From: Oligosphaeraceae bacterium
GTDB taxonomy: Bacteria > Verrucomicrobiota > Lentisphaeria > Oligosphaerales > Oligosphaeraceae
Reading direction: 5' to 3'
Length of the DNA stretch: 64,000 bases
Assembly (NCBI GenBank): GCA_051884615.1
Contig: JBJEVT010000041.1
Location: 125,898-189,897, forward strand
The position numbers and the translations under genes were made by a program. This document shows, piece by piece, positions 374-54,856 of the stretch. A model generated the notes under the pieces. That model was not told the DNA's origin and did no database searches. It saw nothing but the letters and a program-made list of their open reading frames with translations. Numbering within the stretch: position 1 is the first letter of the stretch; every line of letters starts with the position of its first letter.

Positions 374-1687
374 ATGCCAAACAACATCTATCTCACGGGA
401 TTCATGGGAAGCGGCAAAAGCCGCGTGGGGCGGGAATTGGCACGGATGCTGGGGCGTCCCCACCTGGACACCGACCAGCTCTTCCAGGAGACCCACGGGA
501 TTTCCCCGGGGGATTTCATCCGTCAGCAGGGGGAGGAGGCCTTCCGGCAAAAGGAGCAGGAGGTGCTGCGCCAGGTGGCGAAGGAGCGGGAGTTCGCCGT
601 CATCTCCACCGGAGGCGGCATCCCCGTCTATCCCGGCAACAGGGAGATCATGCGGGAAAGCGGCATCACCGCCACCCTCCAAATCTCCCTGGACGCCATC
701 GCCGCGCGGCTCTCCCCCCAGGAAAAGGCGCAAAGACCCCTCTGGGACGAGGAGCGCTTCCGCCAACGCCAGCCCTTCTACCAGGACTGCGAAATCCGGC
801 TGGACGCCGCCCGCACGCCCCGGGAGGTGGCGGAGGAGTTCCGCCAGAAGGCCCGGGAATTCCTCCAGGAGGCCCCCCGGCGCTGCGCCGCCTTCCAGAA
901 ACTCCTGCGCCAATGCGCCCGGGACTGCGCGCGCTTCGGGCTCCTCCAGCGCCAGGACAGAATCCTCCTGGGACTCTCCGGCGGGGAGGACAGCTTCCTC
1001 CTCCTGGAACTCCTCCACGCCATCGCCCGGAAGGCCCCCTTCCCCCTGGAGATCCTGGCCGCCACCATCCACGTGGGCTATCCCGGCTTCCAGGCGGAGC
1101 CCATCCGGCAATACTGCCAGGAACGGGGCTGGGAGTTCCATCTCCGGACGCCGGACCTCTATCCCCTCCTGTCCCCGGAGAAGGTGGGCGACAAGCCCTG
1201 CCCCCTGTGCTCCCGGCTCCGGAGAGGGCAGCTCCACCATCTCCTCCGGGAGCTGCGCTGCAACAAGCTGGCGCTGGGCCACCATCTGGACGACCTGTGC
1301 GTCAGCTTCCTCATGAGCCTCTTCCACGGCGCCGGCCTGAAGACCATGGGTCCCTGCGTGCCCGCGGACCAGGGGAGCGCCACCCTGATCCGTCCCCTCT
1401 GGGGCATTTCCAAGGCCCGGATCCGCCAGGCCGCCCGGCTCTTCCCCTTCCCGGAACCCCAGCCCTGCCCCTACGAGCCGATGCTGGAGGCCCAGGGGGA
1501 CCGGCATTTCCTGGAGCAGACCCTGGACCGCCTGGAAGACCACTTCCCCCATCTCCGGGAAGCCATGAAGAAATCCATGGGGGACCTGCGGCCCCGGCAC
1601 CTCCTGGATTCCCGCTTCCTGGAGACGCCCCCGCCCGGGGAGCCCGCCCCTCCGGAAGAGGGCGCAAATCCCCCTGACCCCCTTTAG
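374..1687 (+). CDS. Fusion protein: N-terminal shikimate kinase (AroK-like) plus C-terminal PP-loop ATPase of the TtcA / tRNA 2-thiocytidine type
   Basis: 437-aa ORF. The N-terminus is MPNNIYLTGFMGSGKS (Walker A), followed by DTD and STGGG motifs typical of shikimate kinase. From about residue 175 there is LLGLSGGEDS (SGGxDS PP-loop), a CPLCS CxxC pair and a later PCPY cysteine, as in TtcA Fe-S ligands. Confidence 0.8.
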   Translation: MPNNIYLTGFMGSGKSRVGRELARMLGRPHLDTDQLFQETHGISPGDFIRQQGEEAFRQKEQEVLRQVAKEREFAVISTGGGIPVYPGNREIMRESGITATLQISLDAIAARLSPQEKAQRPLWDEERFRQRQPFYQDCEIRLDAARTPREVAEEFRQKAREFLQEAPRRCAAFQKLLRQCARDCARFGLLQRQDRILLGLSGGEDSFLLLELLHAIARKAPFPLEILAATIHVGYPGFQAEPIRQYCQERGWEFHLRTPDLYPLLSPEKVGDKPCPLCSRLRRGQLHHLLRELRCNKLALGHHLDDLCVSFLMSLFHGAGLKTMGPCVPADQGSATLIRPLWGISKARIRQAARLFPFPEPQPCPYEPMLEAQGDRHFLEQTLDRLEDHFPHLREAMKKSMGDLRPRHLLDSRFLETPPPGEPAPPEEGANPPDPL

Positions 1688-1800
1688 GCGGGAAGCGGTA
1701 GGAATGCTACATTTTCCCCGTTTTCCGGCGGCCTCCCCCCACCCTGGAAACGCCCCCGGAACCCTCCTTTCCCCCAACCAAAACCGGTCCCCTTTTACAC

Positions 1801-4470
1801 ATGAGCGAAGAACCCCTTTCCAAAGCGTACTCCCCTGCGGAGGTCGAGGCCAAATGGTATGCGATCTGGGAGAAGCGGGGATATTTCCACGGCAGCGTGG
1901 ACAGTCCCAGGAAGCCCTACACCATCGTCATCCCGCCGCCCAACGTCACGGGCATCCTCACCCTGGGGCACGTCCTGAACAACACCCTGCAGGACATTCT
2001 GATCCGCTTTGAGAAGATGCGAGGCCGGGAGACCTGCTGGGTGCCCGGCATGGACCATGCGGGCATCGCCACCCAGGCGAAGGTGGAGGCCTTCCTGAAG
2101 AAGGAGAAGGGGCTCACCCGGTACGACCTGGGGCGGGAGAAGTTCCTGGACGAGGTCTGGAAATGGAAGGAGCAGTATGGCGGGAAGATCATCCGCCAGC
2201 TGCGCACCATCGGCACCGCCTGCGACTGGCCCCGGGAGCGCTTCACCTTCGACGAAGGGCTCTCCAACGCCGTCCAGGAGGTCTTCATCCGCCTCTACCA
2301 GGACGGCCTGATCTACAAGGGCCACCGGATCATCAACTGGTGCCCCAAGAGCCGCACCGCCCTCTCCGACGAGGAAGTGATCTACCGCCAGGAATCCGGC
2401 CATCTCTGGCACATCCGCTATCCCTTCGCCGACGGCTCCGGGGAGGTGGTGGTGGCCACCACCCGCCCGGAGACCCTCATGGGCGACACCGCCGTGGCCG
2501 TCAACCCCGGCGACGAGCGCTACCAGGGGCTGGTGGGCAAGATGCTGGTCCTCCCCATCGTCAACCGCCAGATCCCCCTCATCGCCGACGACTATGTGGA
2601 AAAGGAATTCGGGACCGGCGCCGTGAAGATCACCCCCGCCCACGACCCCAACGACTATGAAGTGGGCCTCCGGCACCATCTGGAGATGCCCAACATCATG
2701 AACGACGACGGCACCCTCAACGAGAATGCCGGCGCCGAGTTCGCCGGGCTGGACCGTTCCGTCGCCCGGAAGCTGGTGGTGCAGAAGCTGGAGGAGGCCG
2801 GGCTTCTGGTGAAGACCGAGGACTATGTCCACCAGGTGGGCTATTCCGAGCGCGGCGGCGTGCCGGTGGAGCCCCGTCTTTCCGAGCAGTGGTTCGTCCG
2901 CATGGAGCCCCTGGCCAAGCCCGCCATCGAGGCCGTCACCAGCGGGCGCATCCGCTTCCATCCGGAGCGCTGGGTCAAGACCTATCTCCACTGGATGGAG
3001 AACATCAAGGACTGGTGCATCTCCCGCCAGCTGTGGTGGGGCCACCGCATCCCCGCCTACTACTGCAAGAAGTGCGGCAAGGTCTTCGTGGGCAAGGCCG
3101 CCCCGGAGAAGTGCCCCTGCGGCTGCACCGAATTCCGGCAGGACGAGGATGTGCTGGACACCTGGTTCAGCTCCTGGCTGTGGCCCTTCTCCGTCTTCTC
3201 CTGGCCCCAGGAGACCCCGGAGCTGAAGCACTTCTATCCCACCGACACCCTGGTCACCGGGCCCGACATCATCTTCTTCTGGGTCGCCCGCATGATCATG
3301 AGCGGACTGCGCTTCATGGGCGAAGTCCCCTTCAAGGACGTCTACTTCACCTCCATCATCCGGGACGACAAGGGGCGCAAGCTCTCCAAGAGCCTGAACA
3401 ACTCCCCCGACCCCCTGGACGTGGTGGCCACCTACGGAGCGGACGCCCTCCGCTTCACCATCATCTACATCGCCCCCATGGGGCAGGACATCCGGTACGA
3501 CAACAAGAAGTGCGAGATCGGCCGCAACTTCGCCAACAAGCTGTGGAACGTGGTGCGCTTCCGGCTGCAGCACGGCCCCGCCTCCCCGGACTGGCAGGAC
3601 CTCTCCGGCCTGAAGCGGGAGGAGCTGCGCCCCGACGACCAGTGGATCCTGGCGCGCCTCAACTCCATCGTCCGCACCATGACCCGGGATTTGGACACCT
3701 TCGATTTCAACGACGCCACCAAGGCCATCTACGACTTCGTGTGGAACGAGTTCTGCAGCTGGTATCTGGAGAGCGCCAAACCCGCCCTCTCCTCTCCCGC
3801 CGGCACCACCTGCGCCACCCTGAAGGTCTTCGACTACTGCCTGGGCACCTTCCTGAAGCTCCTCCATCCCATCATGCCCTTCGTCACCGACGAGCTCTAC
3901 CACCAGATGGGCTTCTGCGGCGAGGAGGATTCCATCATGCTTCAGGCCTGGCCCCTGCCGGTGGAGGCTGACCGCATGGAGGCATGGGGCGCCACCGAGG
4001 AGGTGGAGCGGCTCAACGCCGCCAAGTACGACCTGGTGCGCTCCGTCCGGAATCTCCGCGCCAACTACCAGATCTCCACCACCCTGCCCCTGGACGTGGT
4101 GGTGACCCCCGCCGGAGAGGACGCCCGGCGCTTCCTGGATCTGGACCGGGAGGCCCTTGCCGCCCTGCTGAACGCCAAGACCCTGACCCTGGGCGCCAAG
4201 CCCGCCGGCCCCGCCGGCGTCGCCCTCTCCGCCATGGGCACCGCCTTCGTCCCCCTGGAGGGGCTGGTGGATCTGGAGGCGGAGAAGAAGCGTCTGGAGA
4301 AGCAGTCAGAGGAGGCGGCGAAGTACATCGCCACCCTGGAGAAGAAGCTCTCCAACCAGGGCTATGTGCAGCATGCGCCCGCCGCCGCCGTGGAGGCGGA
4401 CCGCACCCATCTGGCGGAGACCCGGGACAAGCTGGCGCGCATCAAGGAGCAGCTGGGGGAGCTGCAGTAG
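1801..4470 (+). CDS. valS: Valine--tRNA ligase
   Basis: 889-aa ORF with class I aaRS motifs (PPPNVTGILTLGHV = HIGH region, KLSKSLNN = KMSKS), a ValRS-like editing domain and a C-terminal coiled coil. Confidence 0.97.
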   Translation: MSEEPLSKAYSPAEVEAKWYAIWEKRGYFHGSVDSPRKPYTIVIPPPNVTGILTLGHVLNNTLQDILIRFEKMRGRETCWVPGMDHAGIATQAKVEAFLKKEKGLTRYDLGREKFLDEVWKWKEQYGGKIIRQLRTIGTACDWPRERFTFDEGLSNAVQEVFIRLYQDGLIYKGHRIINWCPKSRTALSDEEVIYRQESGHLWHIRYPFADGSGEVVVATTRPETLMGDTAVAVNPGDERYQGLVGKMLVLPIVNRQIPLIADDYVEKEFGTGAVKITPAHDPNDYEVGLRHHLEMPNIMNDDGTLNENAGAEFAGLDRSVARKLVVQKLEEAGLLVKTEDYVHQVGYSERGGVPVEPRLSEQWFVRMEPLAKPAIEAVTSGRIRFHPERWVKTYLHWMENIKDWCISRQLWWGHRIPAYYCKKCGKVFVGKAAPEKCPCGCTEFRQDEDVLDTWFSSWLWPFSVFSWPQETPELKHFYPTDTLVTGPDIIFFWVARMIMSGLRFMGEVPFKDVYFTSIIRDDKGRKLSKSLNNSPDPLDVVATYGADALRFTIIYIAPMGQDIRYDNKKCEIGRNFANKLWNVVRFRLQHGPASPDWQDLSGLKREELRPDDQWILARLNSIVRTMTRDLDTFDFNDATKAIYDFVWNEFCSWYLESAKPALSSPAGTTCATLKVFDYCLGTFLKLLHPIMPFVTDELYHQMGFCGEEDSIMLQAWPLPVEADRMEAWGATEEVERLNAAKYDLVRSVRNLRANYQISTTLPLDVVVTPAGEDARRFLDLDREALAALLNAKTLTLGAKPAGPAGVALSAMGTAFVPLEGLVDLEAEKKRLEKQSEEAAKYIATLEKKLSNQGYVQHAPAAAVEADRTHLAETRDKLARIKEQLGELQ

Positions 4471-9142: not shown

Positions 9143-10453
9143 ATGACCCGACGACAGATCCATCCCCTTCTGCTCCTCCTGCTGGCAGTCCTGCTCCTTT
9201 CCCCTGCCTTCTCCCAGGACGCCCCCTGGAGGCTCCAGCTCTCCCACTACGCCCAGAGGAAGAGCTGGGAGACGCCCCCCGAGAAGCCCCTGCCCCCCCT
9301 CACCGCCGACATGCTGGAGGAGGCCATCGAGGCGGCGGGCACCTATCTGCGGAACCAGCAATATCCCGAGGGGAATTTCCGCTACGCCTACGACTTCATC
9401 GCCGACGCCCTGGACGAGAAGGACAACCAGGTCCGGCAGGCAGGCGTCCTGTGGAGCATCTGCAACCTGAACCGCCATCGTTTCACCGAGGAGACCCGGA
9501 GAAGCGCCCTGCTGGGCCTGGATTTCTTCCTCCGCAGCCAGCGGGGACTGCCTGACGCCCCCCAGGTGGTGGTCACCTACAAGAGCGAGACCGTCGTCCG
9601 CACCGGGACCGTGGCGCTCTTCTGCATGGCCCTGGTGGATTTCCTGGAGGGGCAGGAACGCTATCTCACCGAAGCCCAGAAGCAGCCCTTCCTGCTGGCT
9701 CTGGAGAACAACCTGAAATTCCTCCAATACCAGGAGCTGGCCAGCGGCTCCTGGCGGGAAGACTACGAGCTGAACGGCGTCCGTCTGCCCGAGGACATCG
9801 CCCCCTTCTCCTCCTATTTCGACGGGGAATGTCTCCTTGCCTACGCCAAGGCCGCCCTCTACTACCAGGCGCGCCCCCATCTCCCCCCCCCCGTCCCCCT
9901 GGAGGCACGGCTGCGGGACGCCCTGCCCAAACTCCTGCGGAAATACACCGTGGAATGTTTTGGGGAAGGCGGGGACACGGACTACACCAAGGGCTTCTAC
10001 CAATGGGGCGCCATGGCCTGCCAGCAGACGGCCCTGCTCCTTCCCCAGGACCAGGACATCCAGAAGCTGACCCTGGAGGGCGCCCTCGCCTTGAGCTGGT
10101 GGCAGATTTTCGGCCACAAGGTGGAGACCCGGGCCGGCAACACGGGCTATGCCGTGGAGGGCCTGGCGGCCACCATCATGACGGCGGAGCGGGCGGGCCT
10201 TCACGAGGAGGCGGAATTCCTGCGGCAGCGCACGGAGGGGTTGCTTCTGCGGCTGATGAGCTGGCAGGTGGGCGGCCCCCTGGCGGCCTACAATCCCCTC
10301 CTCAGGGCATGGGAAGGCCGCATCCCGCCCCGGGCCTTCGGGGGAATCACCTCCACCGCCGACTCCAGCTTCATCCGCATCGACGTGGTGCAGCACCAGC
10401 TCCACGCCATGCTGCTCGCCCTCCAAGCCTTCTTCCCGGAACCCCTCCCGTGA
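9143..10453 (+). CDS. Secreted hypothetical protein, possibly an alpha/alpha-toroid fold
   Basis: Signal-peptide-like N-terminus (LLLLLLAVLLLSPAFSQDAP). The amino-acid composition is normal and helix-rich, with repeated aromatic/Gly motifs. No family was recognised with certainty. Confidence 0.6.
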   Translation: MTRRQIHPLLLLLLAVLLLSPAFSQDAPWRLQLSHYAQRKSWETPPEKPLPPLTADMLEEAIEAAGTYLRNQQYPEGNFRYAYDFIADALDEKDNQVRQAGVLWSICNLNRHRFTEETRRSALLGLDFFLRSQRGLPDAPQVVVTYKSETVVRTGTVALFCMALVDFLEGQERYLTEAQKQPFLLALENNLKFLQYQELASGSWREDYELNGVRLPEDIAPFSSYFDGECLLAYAKAALYYQARPHLPPPVPLEARLRDALPKLLRKYTVECFGEGGDTDYTKGFYQWGAMACQQTALLLPQDQDIQKLTLEGALALSWWQIFGHKVETRAGNTGYAVEGLAATIMTAERAGLHEEAEFLRQRTEGLLLRLMSWQVGGPLAAYNPLLRAWEGRIPPRAFGGITSTADSSFIRIDVVQHQLHAMLLALQAFFPEPLP

Positions 10454-10581
10454 CCGCCCCCCTGGAAAGCACGAGAACCCTCCGGCCCGCCGTGGAGGAG
10501 ACCCAGTTCTCCTCGGGGGAGCCTTCCCCGCGGCTCACCAACACCCGGATCCGAAGAATCCGGGAACGTTTCCATGCCCGG

Positions 10582-12303
10582 ATGCATGGGAGCCGCACCC
10601 AGTGGCGTCCCTTCTCCCCCCTTCCCGGCGACGTCCCCCACAATCTGGTGCCGGGCTGCACCCTCCAGGCGGTGATTGGCTCCGGGGGCATGGGCACCGT
10701 CTATCTCGCCCGCCAGAACGCCCTGAACCGCCAGGTGGCGGTGAAGGTCCTGAATCCCCGTCTGGCCAACGACCCGGTCTTCATGGAGCGTCTGCGGAAG
10801 GAGGCCCAGATCATGGGCACCTTCTCCCATCCCAATCTGGTGGGCTGCCACGATATCATCGTCTCCCGCAACGGCGCCTGCATCCTGATGGAGTATATCC
10901 CGGGGCACCTGAACGGGCGGAATCTGGTCCAGCTCCTGGGCCCCATGCCGGAGCGCTACGCCATCCCCGTGCTCCACGCCGTGGCAAAGGGCCTGGCCTA
11001 CGCCTACGAAAAGGGCTTCACCCACCGGGATGTCAAACCCGACAATCTCCTCTTCGCCTTCCAGGACAAACGCCCCCCGGAATCCTACGAGGAGCTCTTC
11101 CAGTCCCCCGATTTCCGGGTGGCTCTCTGCGATTTCGGCATCGCCTCCACCCAAAACCAGTTTCCCGAGGAGCATGGCGGGGAGGACGCCCCCCGGGAGG
11201 AACCCGCGCCGGAGCCCCGGACGGAGGAGGACGAGGAGGAGAACGCCATCGTGGGCAGCCCCCTCTACATGTCTCCGGAACAGGCCATCATGCCCGAGGA
11301 CGTGGATTGCCGGAGCGACATCTACTCCCTGGCATGCACCGCCTTCTTTCTCCTGACCGGAAAGCCCCCCTTCCCCGGAAAGACCCTGGAGGAGGTCCTG
11401 GACCTGAAGACCCAGTGCGACCTCCCCCTCCCCGTCCCGCCGCCGCCCGCCAAACCCCTCAATCCCGTCCTGGGCAAGGCCCTCCTCCGCATGGGCGCCC
11501 TGCAGCAGGAGGACCGGTTCCAGGACTACGCCACCCTCCTGGACATCCTCTCCACCCTGGAGACCTCCCTGGTCTCCCCCCTCTCCTTCCGGCTCTTCAC
11601 CTACCATTACCGGAAATTCCTCATCCGGCTCTGCCTGGGGGCGCTGCTGCTGGGAGGCGTCATCCTCCTGGGCCTCTTCGGATACACCCAGTGGCTGAAC
11701 AACTACGAGCGGCGCCTCATGGACGACACGGTCTTCCTGGGCAAATGGGAAGGCACCCTCTCCACCTGGCAGCAGATCTTCACGGCGGAGGGACGGGTCC
11801 TCCTGGGCACCCCCTCCTCCGGCCCCCTCACCCTGAAGGAACGCCTCCGCCCCGGCGACTATCTCCGGGTCTCTCTGAATTTTCAAGATGTGGGCAGCGC
11901 CGTCCTCATGCTTCACATGACGATGGGGGAGGAGACGATTCCCCTGGTGCGCATCATCTGCTACCGGGAATCCCGGCGCAACGTGGTGCAGCTGGGCATT
12001 CCGTCTCGGCGACCGGACTCCACCACCTCCTTCGAGGAAATCCCCGGCCCCCTGGATCTCCCCGACGCCACCAATCCCTGGATTCAGTTGCGCCTCCAGT
12101 TCCACGAGAGCTTCTGCGTGGTCTGGAACCAGGAACGCCCCCTGGGCATCTGCCACTTCCCCCCCGGCATGACCCCCGTCCAGGAAGCCGCTTTCTCCAT
12201 CTCCCGCCTGAATTGCCCGCAAGTGCAGTTCGCCAACATCGCCCTGGTCAAGGAAAAATACGCCCAGCGCATCCTTCCCCGCCTGAACGAAGAATATCCC
12301 TGA
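10582..12303 (+). CDS. Ser/Thr protein kinase (Hanks type) with a TM helix and C-terminal extracytoplasmic domain
   Basis: Kinase motifs are GSGGMGTVYLA (Gly loop), VAVK, HRDVKPDNLL, CDFG and SPLYMSPEQ. The TM segment is LIRLCLGALLLGGVILLGLFGY. The track ORF begins at 9829, but the first in-frame ATG after the upstream gene ends is 10582. Confidence 0.85.
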   Translation: MHGSRTQWRPFSPLPGDVPHNLVPGCTLQAVIGSGGMGTVYLARQNALNRQVAVKVLNPRLANDPVFMERLRKEAQIMGTFSHPNLVGCHDIIVSRNGACILMEYIPGHLNGRNLVQLLGPMPERYAIPVLHAVAKGLAYAYEKGFTHRDVKPDNLLFAFQDKRPPESYEELFQSPDFRVALCDFGIASTQNQFPEEHGGEDAPREEPAPEPRTEEDEEENAIVGSPLYMSPEQAIMPEDVDCRSDIYSLACTAFFLLTGKPPFPGKTLEEVLDLKTQCDLPLPVPPPPAKPLNPVLGKALLRMGALQQEDRFQDYATLLDILSTLETSLVSPLSFRLFTYHYRKFLIRLCLGALLLGGVILLGLFGYTQWLNNYERRLMDDTVFLGKWEGTLSTWQQIFTAEGRVLLGTPSSGPLTLKERLRPGDYLRVSLNFQDVGSAVLMLHMTMGEETIPLVRIICYRESRRNVVQLGIPSRRPDSTTSFEEIPGPLDLPDATNPWIQLRLQFHESFCVVWNQERPLGICHFPPGMTPVQEAAFSISRLNCPQVQFANIALVKEKYAQRILPRLNEEYP

Positions 12304-12329
12304 CCTCCTCCCCCCCCCTCCGCCACCCC

Positions 12330-13730
12330 ATGGACTCCTCCCCACTGCTCAAGGCCATCCAGCTGGTGAACAGCTGCCTCTCCGACTACGTCCTCACCGT
12401 GCTCCTGGTGGGAACCGGCATCTTCTTCACCCTTCGGACGGGCATGGTCCAGAGATACTGCTTCGGGAAGGGAATGAGGCAGGCGCTGGGGGACTTCTCC
12501 CTCCATGGCAGGCAGAACGGGCATGGTCTCAATTCCTTCCAGGCCCTTTGCGCCGCCGTGGCGGCGCAGGTGGGCACGGGAAACATCGTGGGCGCCTCCG
12601 GCGCCATCCTCACCGGCGGCCCCGGCGCCATCTTCTGGATGTGGGTCATCGCCTTCTTCGGCATGGCCACCATCTATGCGGAGGCCATCCTGGCCCAGGT
12701 GACCCGCATCCAGGATCCCGCCGGCGAACTCCACGGCGGCCCCGTCTACTACATCAAACGGGCCTTCCCCGGACTCCTGGGCTCCTTCCTGGCGCATTTC
12801 TTCGCCATCGCCTGCATCCTCTCCCTGGGATTCATCGGCTGCATGGTCCAGGCCAACTCCATCAGCGAAACCTGCCATAACGCCTTCGGACTGCCCACCC
12901 CCCTCATCGGACTCCTCATCGCCACCCTCTCCTTCCTCATCTTCACCGGCGGCATCTCCCGCATCTCCCGGGTCACCGAAAAGCTGGTCCCCCTCATGGC
13001 CCTCCTCTATCTCCTGGGCGGACTCCTGATCCTCGCCCTCCGCTGGAGATACCTCCCCACCACCTTCGCCGCCATCTTCCAATACGCCTTCAACCCCGAA
13101 GCCCTCATCGGCGGCGGCATGGGATACGCCTTGAAAACCGCCATCAGCCAAGGCGTGAAACGGGGACTGTTCTCCAACGAGGCCGGCATGGGCTCCACCC
13201 CCCACGCCCATGCCCAGGCCATCGTGGACAAGGCCCACGACCAGGGCGTGGTCGCCATGTGCGGCGTCTTCGTGGACACCTTCGTGGTCCTCACCATGAC
13301 CGCCCTGGTGGTGATCTCCACCATCTACTGCGGAGACGGCCCCCTGGCCGGCGCCACCGGCGAAACCTACAGCCAGCTGCTGGCCAGCCAGGGACTGACC
13401 AAAACCACCCTGGTCCAAACCGCCTTCTCCCATTCCCTGGCGGGGGGGAATCTGGGCGAGGCCTTCGTGGCCGTCTGCCTCTTCTTCTTCGCCTTCTCCA
13501 CCATCCTGGGCTGGAACTTCTTCGGGAAAATCAACTTCCACTATCTCTTCGGGAAAAAGTCCCTCCCGGTCTACTATCTGCTGGCCGCCGGCTTCATCTT
13601 CCTGGGCTCCATCGTGCAAAACGACCTGGCCTGGGAACTCCAGGATATGTTCAACCAGCTCATGGTCCTCCCCAACGTCCTCGCCCTCCTGGCCCTCTCC
13701 TCCCTGGTGGCCAAGGCAAAACGGGAATAG
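12330..13730 (+). CDS. Alanine/glycine:cation symporter (AGCS family)
   Basis: From ATG 12330: ...SFQALCAAVAAQVGTGNIVGASGAILTGGPGAIFWMWVIAFFGMAT... and GLFSNEAGMGSTPHAHA, both classical AGCS motifs. The protein is polytopic. Confidence 0.9.
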   Translation: MDSSPLLKAIQLVNSCLSDYVLTVLLVGTGIFFTLRTGMVQRYCFGKGMRQALGDFSLHGRQNGHGLNSFQALCAAVAAQVGTGNIVGASGAILTGGPGAIFWMWVIAFFGMATIYAEAILAQVTRIQDPAGELHGGPVYYIKRAFPGLLGSFLAHFFAIACILSLGFIGCMVQANSISETCHNAFGLPTPLIGLLIATLSFLIFTGGISRISRVTEKLVPLMALLYLLGGLLILALRWRYLPTTFAAIFQYAFNPEALIGGGMGYALKTAISQGVKRGLFSNEAGMGSTPHAHAQAIVDKAHDQGVVAMCGVFVDTFVVLTMTALVVISTIYCGDGPLAGATGETYSQLLASQGLTKTTLVQTAFSHSLAGGNLGEAFVAVCLFFFAFSTILGWNFFGKINFHYLFGKKSLPVYYLLAAGFIFLGSIVQNDLAWELQDMFNQLMVLPNVLALLALSSLVAKAKRE

Positions 13731-13796: not shown

Positions 13797-13921
13797 GTCT
13801 CATGGCTCAAAAACCAGAAAACCTCGCTCCCTCGCCCCGCTTCCCGGCCCCATGGATACTGCCTTGGATATCCTTTCGGGTCTGACATGAAGATTCATTT
13901 CATGCCCCGGGAAGAGGCAAA

Positions 13922-14098
13922 ATGAAGAATGCCGCCAACGTCATGGCGAACGTCTCGGTGGAACTCCCCCGTCCGCTGAACTGGTCCCATGAGGATATTT
14001 CCATGGGGAACGAGGGCATCGAGGATCGCTCCAATGAATATCCTGATTTGGCAAAATGTGCGTGTTCGGGGAAGGGAAAGAACGATGGGATTCTTTAG
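13922..14098 (+). CDS. Possible 58-aa acidic small protein ending in a CxCxGKGK (SEC-C-like) motif
   Basis: ATG 13922 to TAG 14096-14098 gives MKNAANVMANVSVELPRPLNWSHEDISMGNEGIEDRSNEYPDLAKCACSGKGKNDGIL. The ORF is below the track cutoff, has a weak SD (gaagagg), and has no support beyond being open. Confidence 0.2.
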   Translation: MKNAANVMANVSVELPRPLNWSHEDISMGNEGIEDRSNEYPDLAKCACSGKGKNDGIL

Positions 14099-14387
14099 GA
14101 GAACGACTTGCGTTTTTTTCCTTTCATGAAACGGTAAAATCTGCTGAATTGACAACGGATATCGTGAGCATCCAGGAAAAGAATCAAAGACCGTTTATCT
14201 TTACGAATCCCAAAGGAATCCCCATACGTTTCGGGACAAAAACTCTTTGTCTGGAAAATGGTTGCTATCGGTCGGAAATCTTGAAGGCATAGAGGAGGCA
14301 AAGCGCAAGAGATACCGCAAGGGGCCTGTTGAAGCCTGGTTTGCCGACAAGACCACAATCAACAATGAACACATAGGAGGATACAAC

Positions 14388-14870
14388 ATGGCTGGCTTGC
14401 TTTGCTTGTGTGGTAATGGAATGAGCAATTCCACGGCACCGTCGGAATCCATTGCGGAAATCCATAGCCCGGAGGCCCTGGAAAGAGACAGGGACATCGA
14501 ACTATGGGATTTTTGGGATGAGCAATGGGAATATTGGCACTGCCAGGCGTGCCAGCGCGTCACCGTGATTGATAGAAAGACTTGTTTGTATGTAAAAAGC
14601 TACTCCCGGATGACGGAGAAACACCCTCCATGCCTTGACACTCTTGGAGACTGGAAGACGCTTTACTACTGGAGCGACCGGGAGTTCTACGATGGGATAG
14701 AGGAAGAGGAGAAGCGCACCTTGGGAGATTTCGTGCAAAAACATCCCCCCCGCTATGTCATCCGTCTCTCTCCCGATCAATCCAAGGCCCACGTCTTCCG
14801 TACCGACACGAAGGAATACCGGTGCACCTACGTTCTGGATCCCCCACCGGACTTCCTCAAGAAGCCCTGA
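14388..14870 (+). CDS. Hypothetical protein, tandem paralog A (160 aa), unknown family
   Basis: The start MAGLLCLCGNG is preceded by AGGAGG 7 nt upstream. It is a paralog of 14990-15478. Substitutions between the copies are conservative in this frame (W/Y/C positions kept). The 207-aa track version starts at TTG 14247, but that extension is not conserved in copy B. Confidence 0.6.
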   Translation: MAGLLCLCGNGMSNSTAPSESIAEIHSPEALERDRDIELWDFWDEQWEYWHCQACQRVTVIDRKTCLYVKSYSRMTEKHPPCLDTLGDWKTLYYWSDREFYDGIEEEEKRTLGDFVQKHPPRYVIRLSPDQSKAHVFRTDTKEYRCTYVLDPPPDFLKKP

Positions 14871-14989
14871 AGCAAAAAAGGCGTGCCTTCCTGGCTGTTC
14901 GCTGCAACCAGGGGCACGCCCGGCTTGGGGTGAAGCCTGGTTTGCCAACAAGACCAAAATCGCCCCTCGACACATAGTGAGGATATAAC

Positions 14990-15478
14990 ATGGCTGGCTT
15001 GCTTTGCTTGTGTGGCAATGGAATGAGCAATACAACCGTTCCCTCCGATTCCATCATTGAAATCTACCGTCCCGGGGATATCACCCTGGCGATTGACCAG
15101 GAAACAAAACTGATTGATTTATGGGACGAAAAAATTGAGTACTGGTACTGCCATAAATGCAGGCGCATTACTCTCATCGAGCGCAAGACCTCAAAATACA
15201 AGTGCAGTTATTCTAGAATCCGATCTATTCCTTCGCCGAACATGGAAACTCTACAAGGCTTTTCCCCATTGTTCTTTTGGAGAGACAATGATTTTTACAG
15301 AGCAACGGAAGAAGACTGGGGAATCACCGTCAAGGACTTCGTGAAGCATACTCCCCCCCGCTATGTCATCCGTCTCTCGCCTGACGAATCTATGGCCCAC
15401 GTCTTCCATACCGACACGAAGGAATACCAGTGCACCTACATCCGGGATCCCCCACCGGATTTCCTCAAGAAGCCCTGA
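14990..15478 (+). CDS. Hypothetical protein, tandem paralog B (162 aa), unknown family
   Basis: It shares the first 14 residues with paralog A (MAGLLCLCGNGMSN) and 35 of the last 42 by hand alignment. An in-frame stop lies just upstream of the ATG, and GAGGA serves as an SD. Confidence 0.6.
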   Translation: MAGLLCLCGNGMSNTTVPSDSIIEIYRPGDITLAIDQETKLIDLWDEKIEYWYCHKCRRITLIERKTSKYKCSYSRIRSIPSPNMETLQGFSPLFFWRDNDFYRATEEDWGITVKDFVKHTPPRYVIRLSPDESMAHVFHTDTKEYQCTYIRDPPPDFLKKP

Positions 15479-15662
15479 AGCAAAAAAGACAGGACCGGGG
15501 CAACGGAGCATCCGGCGCCGGATGTCAGGACGCCCCCCTCGCCCGAAGCCCTATGTGTCGTCTGTGCCGCCCGGCGAGCCGGGCGGCACTGTGTGGTCTG
15601 TGTTGAAGCGGCAGCGTCCTCTGGGCTCGCCCTGTGGTCTGGGGCGGGCCGCAGGCGTTGCG

Positions 15663-18950
<3,288 letters not shown>

Positions 18951-52891: not shown

Positions 52892-53394
52892 ATGGGGAGG
52901 CGCCAGCTGATTCAGCGCATCAAGAACTATCTGCGGAAGACGTTGGGCATGGAGGTCCGGGCCGTTCCCCGGGAGAACCGGTCTTTTCCCGCCTGCCTGG
53001 GATGGAGTTTTGATTTTTATAAAACCGTCCTTGGCCGCCGCCCCTGTCTTCTAGCCCTGGAAAAGCCGGGAGTCCACCTGACCCCGCCGACCATCGACAA
53101 AAGCTTCGCGGCACTTTCGCCCCACGCGGGGGGGGCGCGGTGGTTGTTTTTGCCTGCGAGACCATGCCCGCCTATGAGAGGCAGCGGCTAATGCAACGCC
53201 GGATTCCCTTCCTCATCCCCGACCGCCAGCTCTATCTTCCTTTTCCCGCCAGGGTCTTTTCCGAGTTTGGCACGAAGAAGCAACGGAGTTTCGAGGGTCT
53301 TGGCAACGGGGCGCAAATCCTCCTGTTGCGCTGGTGGAATGGTCTTTCCGCCGAGTTCAGCCTCCCGGAGGCGAGGAACGCCACCTGCCTGTAG
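52892..53394 (+). pseudogene. Frameshifted (in a G8 run) and probably 3'-truncated gene of unknown family
   Basis: ORFs 52853-53191 and 53140-53394 join into one reading frame if one G is added to the run at 53128-53135, giving ...FAALSPHAGGGAVVVFACETMPAYERQRLMQRRIPFLIPDRQLYLPF.... Both halves have protein-like composition. Confidence 0.5.
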
Positions 53395-54089
53395 CTCCTC
53401 GCCAGTGCCGATCCTGCGACGCTTCCCCGTATACCCATGTTAGCCAGGACGCCAAGGGCAGCGGAAGTCTGACGGAGACTCTGCCCGACGGAAGATGCCG
53501 CAGGTCCTGCCGTCTTTAGAGCCTCGCCCAAGTCCGTCAGAGTCTGGGCAGAACCGTTGGCGGTGGCGGCAAGGTAATCGGATGCAGGACCAATGTCCTG
53601 CGCACCAAGGCCGAAGACGCGCAAGTTGTTTGCAGCGATAGTGGCGGCCGTCGCAAGGTCGGTGCCGGTGGCCTGGGACAGGGCCATGATGGTCCCCGTC
53701 GCCTCCTTGATCTCCTCCGGGGAGAATCCCATCATCCCAAGGGACTGCATCCCGCTGGCCACCTGGGAGGACGTGAAGGCAGTAGAAGCCCCAAGTTCCC
53801 TGGCCAAGTCGTTCAGTTCCTTCAAATTGTCGCCTGTCGCACCCGTGACGGCACCAACTCGGCGCATCACATCGTCAAATCCTGCGAAAGCCTTGACACC
53901 CCCCGCAAACGGTGCAAGCATCTTCTCCCCGATGTCCTGGAGTGGTTGCCCAAATTTTGCGCACGCCTTGGCAAAGTTTCGAGTCTTGTCCTCTAAACCA
54001 TTGAGATCTTTCAGGAAGCCGTCTGACTCAAGGACAACCTGAGGATATGAATATGCGGCAAATTTATCACTGGGAACAGTTCCACTCAT
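53232..54089 (-). pseudogene. Phage tail tape-measure protein, N-terminal fragment (TP901-type core), truncated near 53395
   Basis: FDDVMRRVGAVTGATGDNLKELNDLARELGASTAFTSSQVASGMQSLGMMGFSPEEIKEATGTIMALSQATGTDLATAATIAANNLRVFGL...LGVLANMGIRGSVAGSALARSY matches the conserved TMP core as I recall it. The last ~55 codons run antisense through the neighbouring gene and look non-homologous. Intact TMPs are several-fold longer. Confidence 0.7.
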
Positions 54090-54123
54090 GATTGTGTGCT
54101 ATATTGGGGGGCGGAGGTGAAAG

Positions 54124-54483
54124 ATGATGAAACGTTACCTTGTACGTGTTTATAAGTTTGATCCAGGAAGTTACGCAACGATACACTATAATGTCCGTGA
54201 TAGGTTGACTGGTAAATCGTATTCAGGCCTAGATACCATTGAAGCATTCAAGGATTATAAAGGGACGATACAGGAACTGGCGAATGACATGGACATAGAA
54301 GATGAGTATCCAATTCTTGGTGTGTATGGAGATAGGTACATTGTATCCAACAAAAGCTGGACAGGGTTTCCTTTCTTGTATCTTGAACTGAATGAAAAGG
54401 GGAAAAGAGAACGGCATTGGGCGATGTTTCACAAGCATTTGTGGAAGCCTTGGAATGTATCCATAGTTCCCTATCATAAATAA
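54124..54483 (+). CDS. Hypothetical 119-aa protein, orphan, AT-rich
   Basis: A strong SD GGAGGTG lies 8 nt before ATGATG. The composition is Lys/Tyr/Asp-rich and globular-looking. A weak AT hairpin (aataac ctcct gttatt) follows just after the stop. No family was recognised. Confidence 0.55.
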   Translation: MMKRYLVRVYKFDPGSYATIHYNVRDRLTGKSYSGLDTIEAFKDYKGTIQELANDMDIEDEYPILGVYGDRYIVSNKSWTGFPFLYLELNEKGKRERHWAMFHKHLWKPWNVSIVPYHK

Positions 54484-54520
54484 TAACCTCCTGTTATTCG
54501 CAAGCAATTGCCTTGAAGAC

Positions 54521-54856
54521 TTGCGCCGCTTCCTTGGGGGATTTCACCACCTTGGCATGGGTTGCTTCTCTTCTGTATGGATTAAGGCAAAGGCATGGAC
54601 GGACTTGTCCACTCGCAGAGCCAGGGGAGAACCGGTGGATTCCAGGAATGTAAAGAAGCACCGCAACGACGTGTCCCGCCTGGTCACCATGATTCCCCCC
54701 GGCCTTTCCCTCCGTCTTCCCCCAGCCATCTCCATGGAAATGGCGGAGTTTCTCCGGCGTCTGACCATCGAACGCCACGACCTTGCCGTGCTGGACATTC
54801 GCGGAACTCCCGATGAAATCCGTCCCTTGCCGACGACTCTGCCAGGGCAGCCGTGA
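54521..54856 (+). pseudogene. 5'-truncated gene fragment (C-terminal ~110 codons) of a protein I associate with nucleotidyltransferase-fold / TA-like families
   Basis: IKAKAWTDLSTRRARGEPVDSRNVKKHRNDVSRLV resembles a conserved C-terminal block (..KAKAWLDL..R...GE.VDS..I.KHRNDV.RL) that I recall from uncharacterised mobile-element proteins. There is no plausible N-terminal domain or ATG start, and the frame opens only at 54467. Confidence 0.35.

Follow-up and report, generated by a model that had tools for sequence, protein, structure and literature searches.

Tandem zinc-ribbon genes in a low-G+C islet of an Oligosphaeraceae genome as probable orphan immunity genes of a decayed toxin-immunity cassette

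Introduction

Arrays of orphan immunity genes, the acquired interbacterial defence islands, were reportedly described in gut Bacteroidales by Ross et al. in 2019. In polymorphic toxin systems, the gene directly after a C-terminal toxin domain is the immunity gene of that toxin (PMC3482391). One such domain, CdiA_C (PF18451), is the PD-(D/E)xK tRNase of CdiA-CTII of Burkholderia pseudomallei 1026b (PMC9990079), and PD-Lambda-2, made up of a HigB-like A, an Xre-peptidase B and a third component C, is an anti-phage system of E. coli (PMC9519451). The subject of this work is a tandem pair of small genes, A and B, in a 64,000-nucleotide stretch of a metagenome-assembled genome (MAG) of an Oligosphaeraceae bacterium (assembly GCA_051884615.1, contig JBJEVT010000041.1, positions 125,898 to 189,897, forward strand), hereafter the window. 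Their products belong to a family with four invariant cysteines, here called Cys4, and comparison with related loci makes it probable that both are orphan immunity or antitoxin genes left from a decayed, horizontally acquired toxin-immunity cassette. In its intact form this cassette appears to consist of genes for an XRE repressor and an M78 peptidase, followed by an operon of DUF4417, a nuclease gene (A3) and one or two Cys4 genes.

Among the described systems, the systems of Rhs and contact-dependent growth inhibition (CDI) type with a CdiA_C tRNase, such as CdiA-CTII/CdiI of B. pseudomallei 1026b and SitA3/SitI3 of Myxococcus, seem to have their toxin family in common with the cassette, A3 being a candidate remote homolog. 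The immunity gene lies immediately downstream in both, the variable C-terminal half of the toxin is exchanged together with it as a single block, and there are orphan cassettes of toxin C-termini as well as orphan immunity genes. However, Cys4 is unlike any solved immunity protein, CdiI included, in sequence and fold; the toxin of the lineage to which the window belongs is a free-standing protein of 145 residues with no Rhs or CdiA delivery domain, and it is embedded with DUF4417 and XRE/M78 genes and absent from the window itself. With type II toxin-antitoxin pairs in which the toxin gene comes first (higBA-like order), the cassette shares a small, presumably cytoplasmic nuclease followed by a tightly coupled, faster-evolving neutraliser, as well as the tolerance of toxin loss and the loss of the neutraliser only with a broken toxin. 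In contrast to them, Cys4 has no recognisable DNA-binding antitoxin domain, regulation is apparently delegated to XRE and M78, and there is a third conserved operon gene, DUF4417.

The regulatory genes recall PD-Lambda-2, as A-like and B-like genes stand directly upstream of the A3/Cys4 arrays in some relatives, and also the XRE plus M78 regulator pairs of the CapH/CapP or ImmR/ImmA kind, since other phyla have split XRE and M78 genes at that position. Nevertheless, the window lacks these genes, component C has no match, and A3, Cys4 and DUF4417 lie outside the PADLOC models. The acquired interbacterial defence islands resemble the locus in their tandem orphan immunity genes without cognate toxins, found in a gut bacterium within an islet of foreign composition. 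They differ from it in that the present islet holds two such genes only and has no integrase or mobile-element backbone, and the nuclease gene stubs described below point to the in-situ decay of a resident cassette and not to a collection of foreign immunity genes.

Results

Genes A and B and the stubs of two nuclease genes

Gene A (14388-14870, + strand) encodes a protein of 160 residues and gene B (14990-15478, + strand) a protein of 162 residues, both putative orphan immunity or antitoxin proteins with a predicted Cys4 zinc ribbon and both recognised by the family profile (E 3e-51 and 2.6e-51, respectively). The two products are 58% identical (E 2e-69), and the tandem pair of paralogs proposed in an earlier note on this DNA is real. 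The product of gene B is labelled a hypothetical protein by NCBI (MGN0867784.1), and an exact-sequence look-up of A gave no record, probably because another start was called there. The tandem repeat has a period of about 602-608 bp and extends about 60-100 bp upstream of each start codon. Ribosome-binding sites read from the sequence precede both genes, GGAGGA for gene A (14376-14381, + strand, 6 nt ahead of the ATG) and GTGAGGA for gene B (14977-14983, + strand). Both genes are full-length open reading frames (ORFs) in which every invariant residue of the family is kept.

Directly upstream of gene A, positions 14283-14387 (+ strand) hold what a deletion has left of an A3 nuclease gene, a 3' stub equivalent to about residues 118-145 of the protein (hmmsearch positions 118-144 of 145, E 1.4e-10) and 88.9% identical in nucleotides to the A3 3' ends of the related loci L001-L008. 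This stub runs in frame into gene A because the A3 stop codon TAA, still present in L002, has become GAA, a stop loss common to the window and to locus L017. A second, shorter stub (14932-14989, + strand), within which the ribosome-binding site of gene B lies, keeps about the last 19 codons (..EAWFANKTKI..); it was recognised by blastn, by the direct repeat D3 and by DNA alignment, and has a weak profile match to A3 positions 134-143.

The islet that carries the pair aligns to its relatives at two places only. The first (14283/14284-14928) comprises 105 bp of A3 plus gene A; its alignment from 14284 onwards corresponds to L001 7897-8540 and includes a spacer (14871-14928, no strand) homologous to the DNA 3' of the 160-type gene of the relatives. 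The second (14932-15488) comprises 58 bp of A3 plus gene B and corresponds by blastn to L001 6746-7299, the alignment starting inside the first A3 gene. Accordingly, gene A is the ortholog of the '160-type' copy of the relatives (88% nucleotide identity to L001) and gene B that of their '162-type' copy (93% and 84% identical in amino acids to P0001 and P0002), the order of the two types being swapped in the window. Both A3 bodies, DUF4417 and the regulator genes are missing. The earlier note had stated that no toxin is adjacent to the pair, which is nearly true: there is no intact toxin gene, but A and B are each directly preceded by what is left of a deleted nuclease gene, its 3' stub. Its view of the pair as a complete module did not stand, as A and B are the remains of a cassette of five genes that has lost its toxin, DUF4417 and regulator genes here.

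The same junction in relatives

The pair sits between an AGCS symporter gene and a convergent GH2 gene. In relatives from pig-gut metagenomes the same AGCS-GH2 junction holds a much larger island, with the order HigB-like gene, 426-residue helix-turn-helix (HTH)-M78 gene, 145-residue A3 plus 162-type copy, A3 plus 160-type copy, and DUF4417. The HigB-like and HTH-M78 genes match the PADLOC models PD-Lambda-2_A and PD-Lambda-2_B (the latter with E 1.7e-105). Such an A/B-like pair was observed in L001-L008 (for example L002 3354-4927) with no match to PD-Lambda-2_C, and may be a regulator or partner for varied downstream cargo. Apparently 'split' nuclease genes in L005, L006 and L001 were considered as pseudogenes and rejected, as the interruptions are really 100-N scaffold gaps.

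The closest genome, Lentisphaeria MAG302 (L017), shares 87% nucleotide identity with the window over 6.3 kb of flank and has yet another arrangement, namely a 5'-truncated A-type copy, an A3 gene fused in frame to Cys4, and then DUF4417. The fusion (L017 6761-7942) joins an intact nuclease and a Cys4 protein in one ORF through the linker INNEHIGEHN, and would be a natural toxin-immunity fusion, unless it is an assembly artefact common to two assemblies. The junction, which the earlier note had singled out for comparison, is therefore polymorphic, with larger and differently arranged islands in the relatives. Because the window, L017 and the pig-gut relatives all differ in arrangement, these alignments indicate that the AGCS-GH2 junction is a rearrangement hot spot, of which the window is the most reduced state seen.

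An intact cassette in several phyla

A3 served as the probe to retrieve 28 loci from genomes of Lentisphaeria, Victivallales, many Clostridia, Fibrobacter, one actinobacterium, one gammaproteobacterium and one myxobacterium, so that the phyla spanned include Lentisphaerota, Bacillota, Fibrobacterota and Myxococcota. DUF4417, an intact A3 and then one or two intact Cys4 genes were found in 26 of them as a tight operon with frequent 4-bp overlaps. DUF4417 adjoins in nearly all loci, and the operon usually comes after genes for an XRE protein and an M78 peptidase; in Firmicutes the five genes form a free-standing islet of about 2.7 kb between housekeeping genes. No match to PADLOC-DB v2 was obtained for A, B, A3 or DUF4417, and the literature on DUF4417 yielded nothing functional beyond its fusions to ParB-CTPase folds in phages. 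The five-gene cassette, which is absent from PADLOC, is a putative conflict system that resembles toxin-immunity or type II toxin-antitoxin pairs and has a toxin of a known superfamily.

In one goat-rumen Clostridia MAG (L026 4288-9910), a nuclease-Cys4 pair without DUF4417 lies between ORFs of 484 and 519 residues that look like transposases when read from the sequence, which suggests movement or disruption of the cassette mediated by insertion sequences.

The free-standing nuclease A3

The A3 protein has about 145 residues and is free-standing. Residues E33, D54, K72 and Q92 are invariant and E70 nearly so, and the AlphaFold2 (AF2) model has an alpha-beta-beta-beta-alpha-beta core formed by a helix (26-37), three strands (40-44, 55-59 and 65-73), a second helix (80-90) and a fourth strand (98-103). 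Sub-threshold Pfam matches to NOV_C, PDDEXK_4, AHJR-like and pPIWI_RE_REase recur, and the top Foldseek matches, all weak, are SfsA, the SPARDA complex, NucS/EndoMS and Can2, a set enriched for PD-(D/E)xK nucleases. In its modelled core together with its E...D...ExK motif, A3 is a PD-(D/E)xK protein, and catalysis is predicted for it.

A profile of Rhs C-termini matches A3 proteins with E down to 5.8e-8 (35 targets). When both were aligned by hhalign (E 4.3e-4, 98 columns), the D, ExK, Q and VEIW motifs came into register. A3 is thereby marginally recognisable as a remote, free-standing homolog of the CdiA_C toxin domain.

A short form behind Rhs-CdiA_C toxins

Proteins of about 80 residues are homologous to the N-terminal half of the Cys4 family (hhalign 99.7%, E 4.6e-27). 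For this short form 71 metagenome loci were fetched, 47 of them with an adjacent upstream ORF, and this ORF ends in a conserved CdiA_C domain in 32 of the 47, a figure that comes from loci retrieved with patterns from four sequences and is not an unbiased sample. The conserved end reads ...TPDFxVNGVKTELKTL...VIIDGR...LPGxVEIWT. All seven upstream proteins tested exceed the Pfam gathering threshold for CdiA_C, four of them being RHS-repeat proteins, and the gap between the toxin ORF and the gene of about 80 residues is mostly -8 to +28 nt. As this gene directly follows the Rhs CdiA_C toxin domain, the short form occupies the immunity slot. The homologs near polymorphic toxins that the earlier note had proposed to look for in metagenomes are thus found directly behind Rhs-CdiA_C toxins.

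Two Cys4 modules are fused in tandem in P0026 (316 residues) and P0041 (333 residues), and such fusions were seen in the long and the short form. Several loci (the L117, L118 and L121 group) have two or more short-form genes in a row, an arrangement resembling an immunity array.

When the nuclease alignment and close relatives of Cys4 were used to scan IMG/VR, no nuclease and no long Cys4 form turned up. Other alignments brought out a single contig (L057, IMGVR_UViG_3300050335_000067). There (1532-3441), a protein of 552 residues with a CdiA_C C-terminus is followed, with a 4-nt overlap, by a short-form Cys4 gene of 84 codons, and a phage minor tail protein L gene lies about 2 kb downstream. 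The two genes may represent a toxin and its immunity gene carried by a phage, or else a toxin associated with the tail.

Asymmetry and co-diversification of nuclease and Cys4 genes

In relatives, the Cys4 gene lies directly downstream of the toxin gene and in the same orientation at 26 of 28 loci of the long form and 32 of 47 of the short form; of the toxin genes, the window has the stubs only. An intact A3 without Cys4 was found in none of 26 loci. In the one locus that lacks Cys4 (L042), A3 is truncated at 108 of 145 residues. Conversely, an in-frame deletion of A3 residues 49-120 has removed the catalytic core in L044 and left Cys4 intact, and orphan Cys4 copies also occur in L014-L016 and in GCA_016648615.1. 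An intact toxin is thus never alone, and the putative immunity gene can be.

The two genes also diversify together. When the two modules of L002 were compared, A3 codons 1-72 were nearly identical (synonymous divergence, dS, below 0.1), A3 codons 73-145 and Cys4 codons 1-115 were saturated, and Cys4 codons 115-160 were similar again. This mosaic divergent block accounts for the fact that the lowest G+C lies mid-gene in both A and B. Over 29 loci the median pairwise identity is 60% for A3, 45% for DUF4417 and 31% for Cys4, and the pairwise identities of A3 and Cys4 correlate (r = 0.80), Cys4 evolving faster.

The Cys4 family and its predicted fold

A word-indexed search of 5.8 billion proteins returned six close clusters only, and an exhaustive profile search extended the family to 121 clusters (50% identity), of which 65 reached E <= 1e-10 and almost all have 150-180 residues. 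Across 51 members M1, C6 and C8 (CxCG) and C54 and C57 (CxxC) are invariant and nothing else is, which bears out the conserved cysteine motifs read earlier from the two paralogs. Only noise-level matches were obtained for A, B and a 58-residue ORF of the islet in Pfam, NCBIfam, PADLOC and PHROGs, and no significant sequence match in the PDB was obtained with the profiles of Cys4, A3, DUF4417 and the L057 toxin, so that the family is as uncharacterised as the paralogs had been said to be.

An AF2 model of Cys4 built from 22 sequences (predicted local distance difference test, pLDDT, 92.7) shows an alpha/beta domain after the N-terminal four-cysteine part. C6 and C8 are placed between strands 3-5 and 11-13, and C54 and C57 between strands 49-53 and 60-64. 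The model is thus that of a zinc ribbon, with two beta-hairpin knuckles supplying four ligands, and the proteins would be expected to bind zinc. Foldseek found no analog of the model, the best TM-score being <=0.23 against the PDB and <=0.27 against BFVD; matches to beta-propellers and PCNA, with TM-scores <=0.27, were set aside as meaningless.

SEC-C domains are recognised by a C-terminal CxC(x)SGxKxKxCC/CH motif. The analogy with them drawn in the earlier note failed, as neither A nor B nor the 58-residue ORF has a SEC-C Pfam match at E up to 1, and the motif of A and B is an N-terminal CxCG with a distant CxxC, which the model shows as an ordinary two-knuckle zinc ribbon. No similarity to described immunity families (CdiI of B. 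pseudomallei 1026b, the Pfam Imm families, SUKH and others) was detected by sequence or fold, and no zinc-ribbon immunity family is described in Zhang et al. 2012. On these comparisons the Cys4 proteins are best treated as a new, putative immunity family, with a predicted fold that has no solved analog.

Composition of the islet and other features of the window

The pair lies in a low-G+C islet (13886-15524, no strand) bounded by two genes confirmed by Pfam, an alanine/sodium symporter gene (AGCS/Na_Ala_symp, 12330-13730, + strand) and the convergent GH2 beta-galactosidase gene (15663-18884, - strand), as had been claimed. The islet has 50.5% G+C against 64.6% for the whole window, which is the minimum of the 64 kb (z = -4.2 among windows of 1639 bp), and its tetranucleotide distance places it in the most deviant 0.3%. 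The sharp drop in G+C and the foreign composition first read from local counts are thus supported, and a recount of those values (23/60 for 14101-14160 and 26/60 for 15121-15180) was identical.

Upstream of the first stub, a 390-bp segment (13893-14282, no strand) with 46.8% G+C matched no related locus, whether as DNA or in translation, and none of the cassette profiles, and could not be traced to a source. It contains the ORF of 58 residues (13922-14098, + strand), annotated by NCBI as hypothetical protein MGN0867782.1, which forms a cluster of one member and has no homolog in any fetched locus. The suggestion that this acidic peptide is a third family member can be dropped, since it is a singleton with no match to the family profile, its 'CxCSGKG' differs from the family motif and the second cysteine pair is absent. 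Scans of the islet for Rfam families, promoters and + strand terminators found nothing, and in the rest of the 64-kb window there are no A3, DUF4417, M78 or additional Cys4 genes and no CdiA_C-type toxin C-terminus.

A second patch of low G+C (54.1% over 53201-54839, the second-lowest of the window) resembles a prophage fragment (53232-54483). It includes an ORF of 285 residues (53232-54089, - strand) with a PhageMin_Tail match (minor tail/tape-measure, E 1.5e-31), far too short for a tape-measure protein, and an adjoining ORF of 119 residues (54124-54483) without a family. Around the Ser/Thr kinase and AGCS genes (9829-12303), very long ORFs overlap on both strands and in several frames (for example 10602-13730, + strand, and 10288-12345, - strand); these were read as the usual artefact of DNA with 65% G+C and not as genes.

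Discussion

The gene order, the deletions and the asymmetry between nuclease and Cys4 genes can be brought together as follows. Cys4, with its N-terminal zinc ribbon and C-terminal alpha/beta domain, would bind its cognate nuclease and keep it inactive, and the short form would neutralise Rhs toxins with a CdiA_C C-terminus likewise. In the present MAG, both nuclease genes would have been deleted down to 3' stubs of 105 bp and 58 bp at a recombination-prone junction, with the loss of DUF4417 and the regulators, and the two immunity genes would have stayed intact with their ribosome-binding sites. If they are still active, A and B may guard against cassettes that newly arrive or against relatives of the toxin delivered by Rhs proteins. 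Of the options raised in the earlier note, an orphan immunity or anti-toxin array is the one favoured by the immunity slot, the asymmetry and the gene order, and it is the probable one.

Several points weigh against this assignment. Its support is comparative. Regarding the toxin, only one of the five AF2 models of A3 was confident, the hhalign probability between A3 and CdiA_C was only 34%, and the Pfam scan gave no direct CdiA_C match for A3. The retrieval of the short-form loci was selective, as stated, and the long Cys4 form carries an extra C-terminal domain of unassigned role. DUF4417 is a conserved and unexplained operon partner, so the cassette may differ from a simple toxin-antitoxin pair, for which the in-frame nuclease-Cys4 ORF of L017 and the frequent duplication of Cys4 beside a single nuclease gene (L011, L024, L036 and L037) would also be unusual. 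Finally, no sigma-70-like promoter was detected in the islet, and the selection measured on A and B largely predates the deletions.

The last two points bear on the possibility that A and B are neutral debris, recently orphaned, neither expressed nor selected and bound to decay, whatever their ancestral role. All partner genes have been deleted, the islet has no promoter-like site, and the 5'-truncated A-type copy of L017 shows that such copies do decay. The ratios of nonsynonymous to synonymous substitution (dN/dS) against orthologs, 0.11-0.12 for gene A and 0.17-0.21 for gene B, indicate purifying selection but mostly reflect ancestry before the deletions, from which constraint after them cannot be separated; as the truncated L017 copy yields the same value, the ratio is uninformative on constraint since the deletions. 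On the other hand, neither ORF is shortened, all the invariant residues and the ribosome-binding sites are intact, two separate deletions each ended short of a Cys4 start codon, tandem orphan Cys4 pairs recur in GCA_016648615.1, and the scan detected no + strand terminator that would keep transcripts of the co-oriented AGCS gene from reading through. That the pair is mere debris is hence rather unlikely, although it deserves more weight than the alternatives that follow. In one of these, Cys4 would act as sensor or as specificity subunit in an anti-phage system of three genes, together with DUF4417 and the nuclease, under XRE/M78 control, its fast evolution tracking phage proteins, and the copies in the window would be useless leftovers of a dead defence system. 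The much faster evolution of Cys4 than of the nuclease (31% against 60% median identity) and its duplication beside single nuclease genes would suit a sensor, as would the compact, horizontally spread islet behind XRE and M78, its position beside PD-Lambda-2 A/B-like genes in the pig-gut relatives, and the fusion in L017, which fits an effector-regulator pair. However, the short form holds the canonical immunity position behind Rhs-CdiA_C toxins, where sensing is not needed; a nuclease never without Cys4, and a Cys4 that outlasts nuclease loss, are not expected of a sensor; and none of A3, Cys4 and DUF4417 matches the PADLOC models. A sensor role is accordingly improbable.

The other alternative, also raised in the earlier note, makes A and B SEC-C-like metal-binding proteins of phage origin that act in anti-defence, with the 58-residue peptide as third member. 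The four conserved cysteines and the foreign base composition agree with it, and one short-form homolog does lie on an IMG/VR contig (L057) near a phage tail protein L gene. Yet that copy again stands directly after a CdiA_C toxin, and IMG/VR yielded no nuclease and no long Cys4 form; the proteins have no SEC-C or other Pfam match, no PHROG match and no structural analog in the viral structure library BFVD, and the 58-residue ORF has neither relatives nor a profile match. A phage origin is largely refuted and very hard to maintain. The reading of A and B as orphan immunity genes thus remains the favoured one, and a broader, speculative extension of it, rather unlikely to hold, may be put forward. 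The XRE-M78-DUF4417-A3-Cys4 cassette could be an inducible system of abortive infection or addiction, as yet uncatalogued and spreading horizontally among gut anaerobes. In it a free-standing CdiA_C-like tRNase would be held by a zinc-ribbon antidote of new fold and freed through M78 on a phage or DNA-damage signal, and orphan Cys4 arrays like A and B would be kept as an 'acquired immunity' to cassettes that come in or to toxin relatives delivered by Rhs proteins.

The results point to an apparently undescribed family of zinc-ribbon immunity proteins, with about 120 clusters (50% identity), whose short form lies behind Rhs-CdiA_C toxins and whose long form lies behind their putative free-standing homolog. 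The tightly conserved five-gene cassette gives DUF4417 (PF14386) its first consistent genomic context. The window itself appears to be a clear natural example of a toxin lost and immunity kept, at a recombination hot spot in the little-studied gut phylum Lentisphaerota. If neutralisation holds true, structural work would gain a new toxin-inhibitor pair in Cys4 and its nuclease, and the annotation of orphan immunity genes in gut metagenomes would gain a marker.

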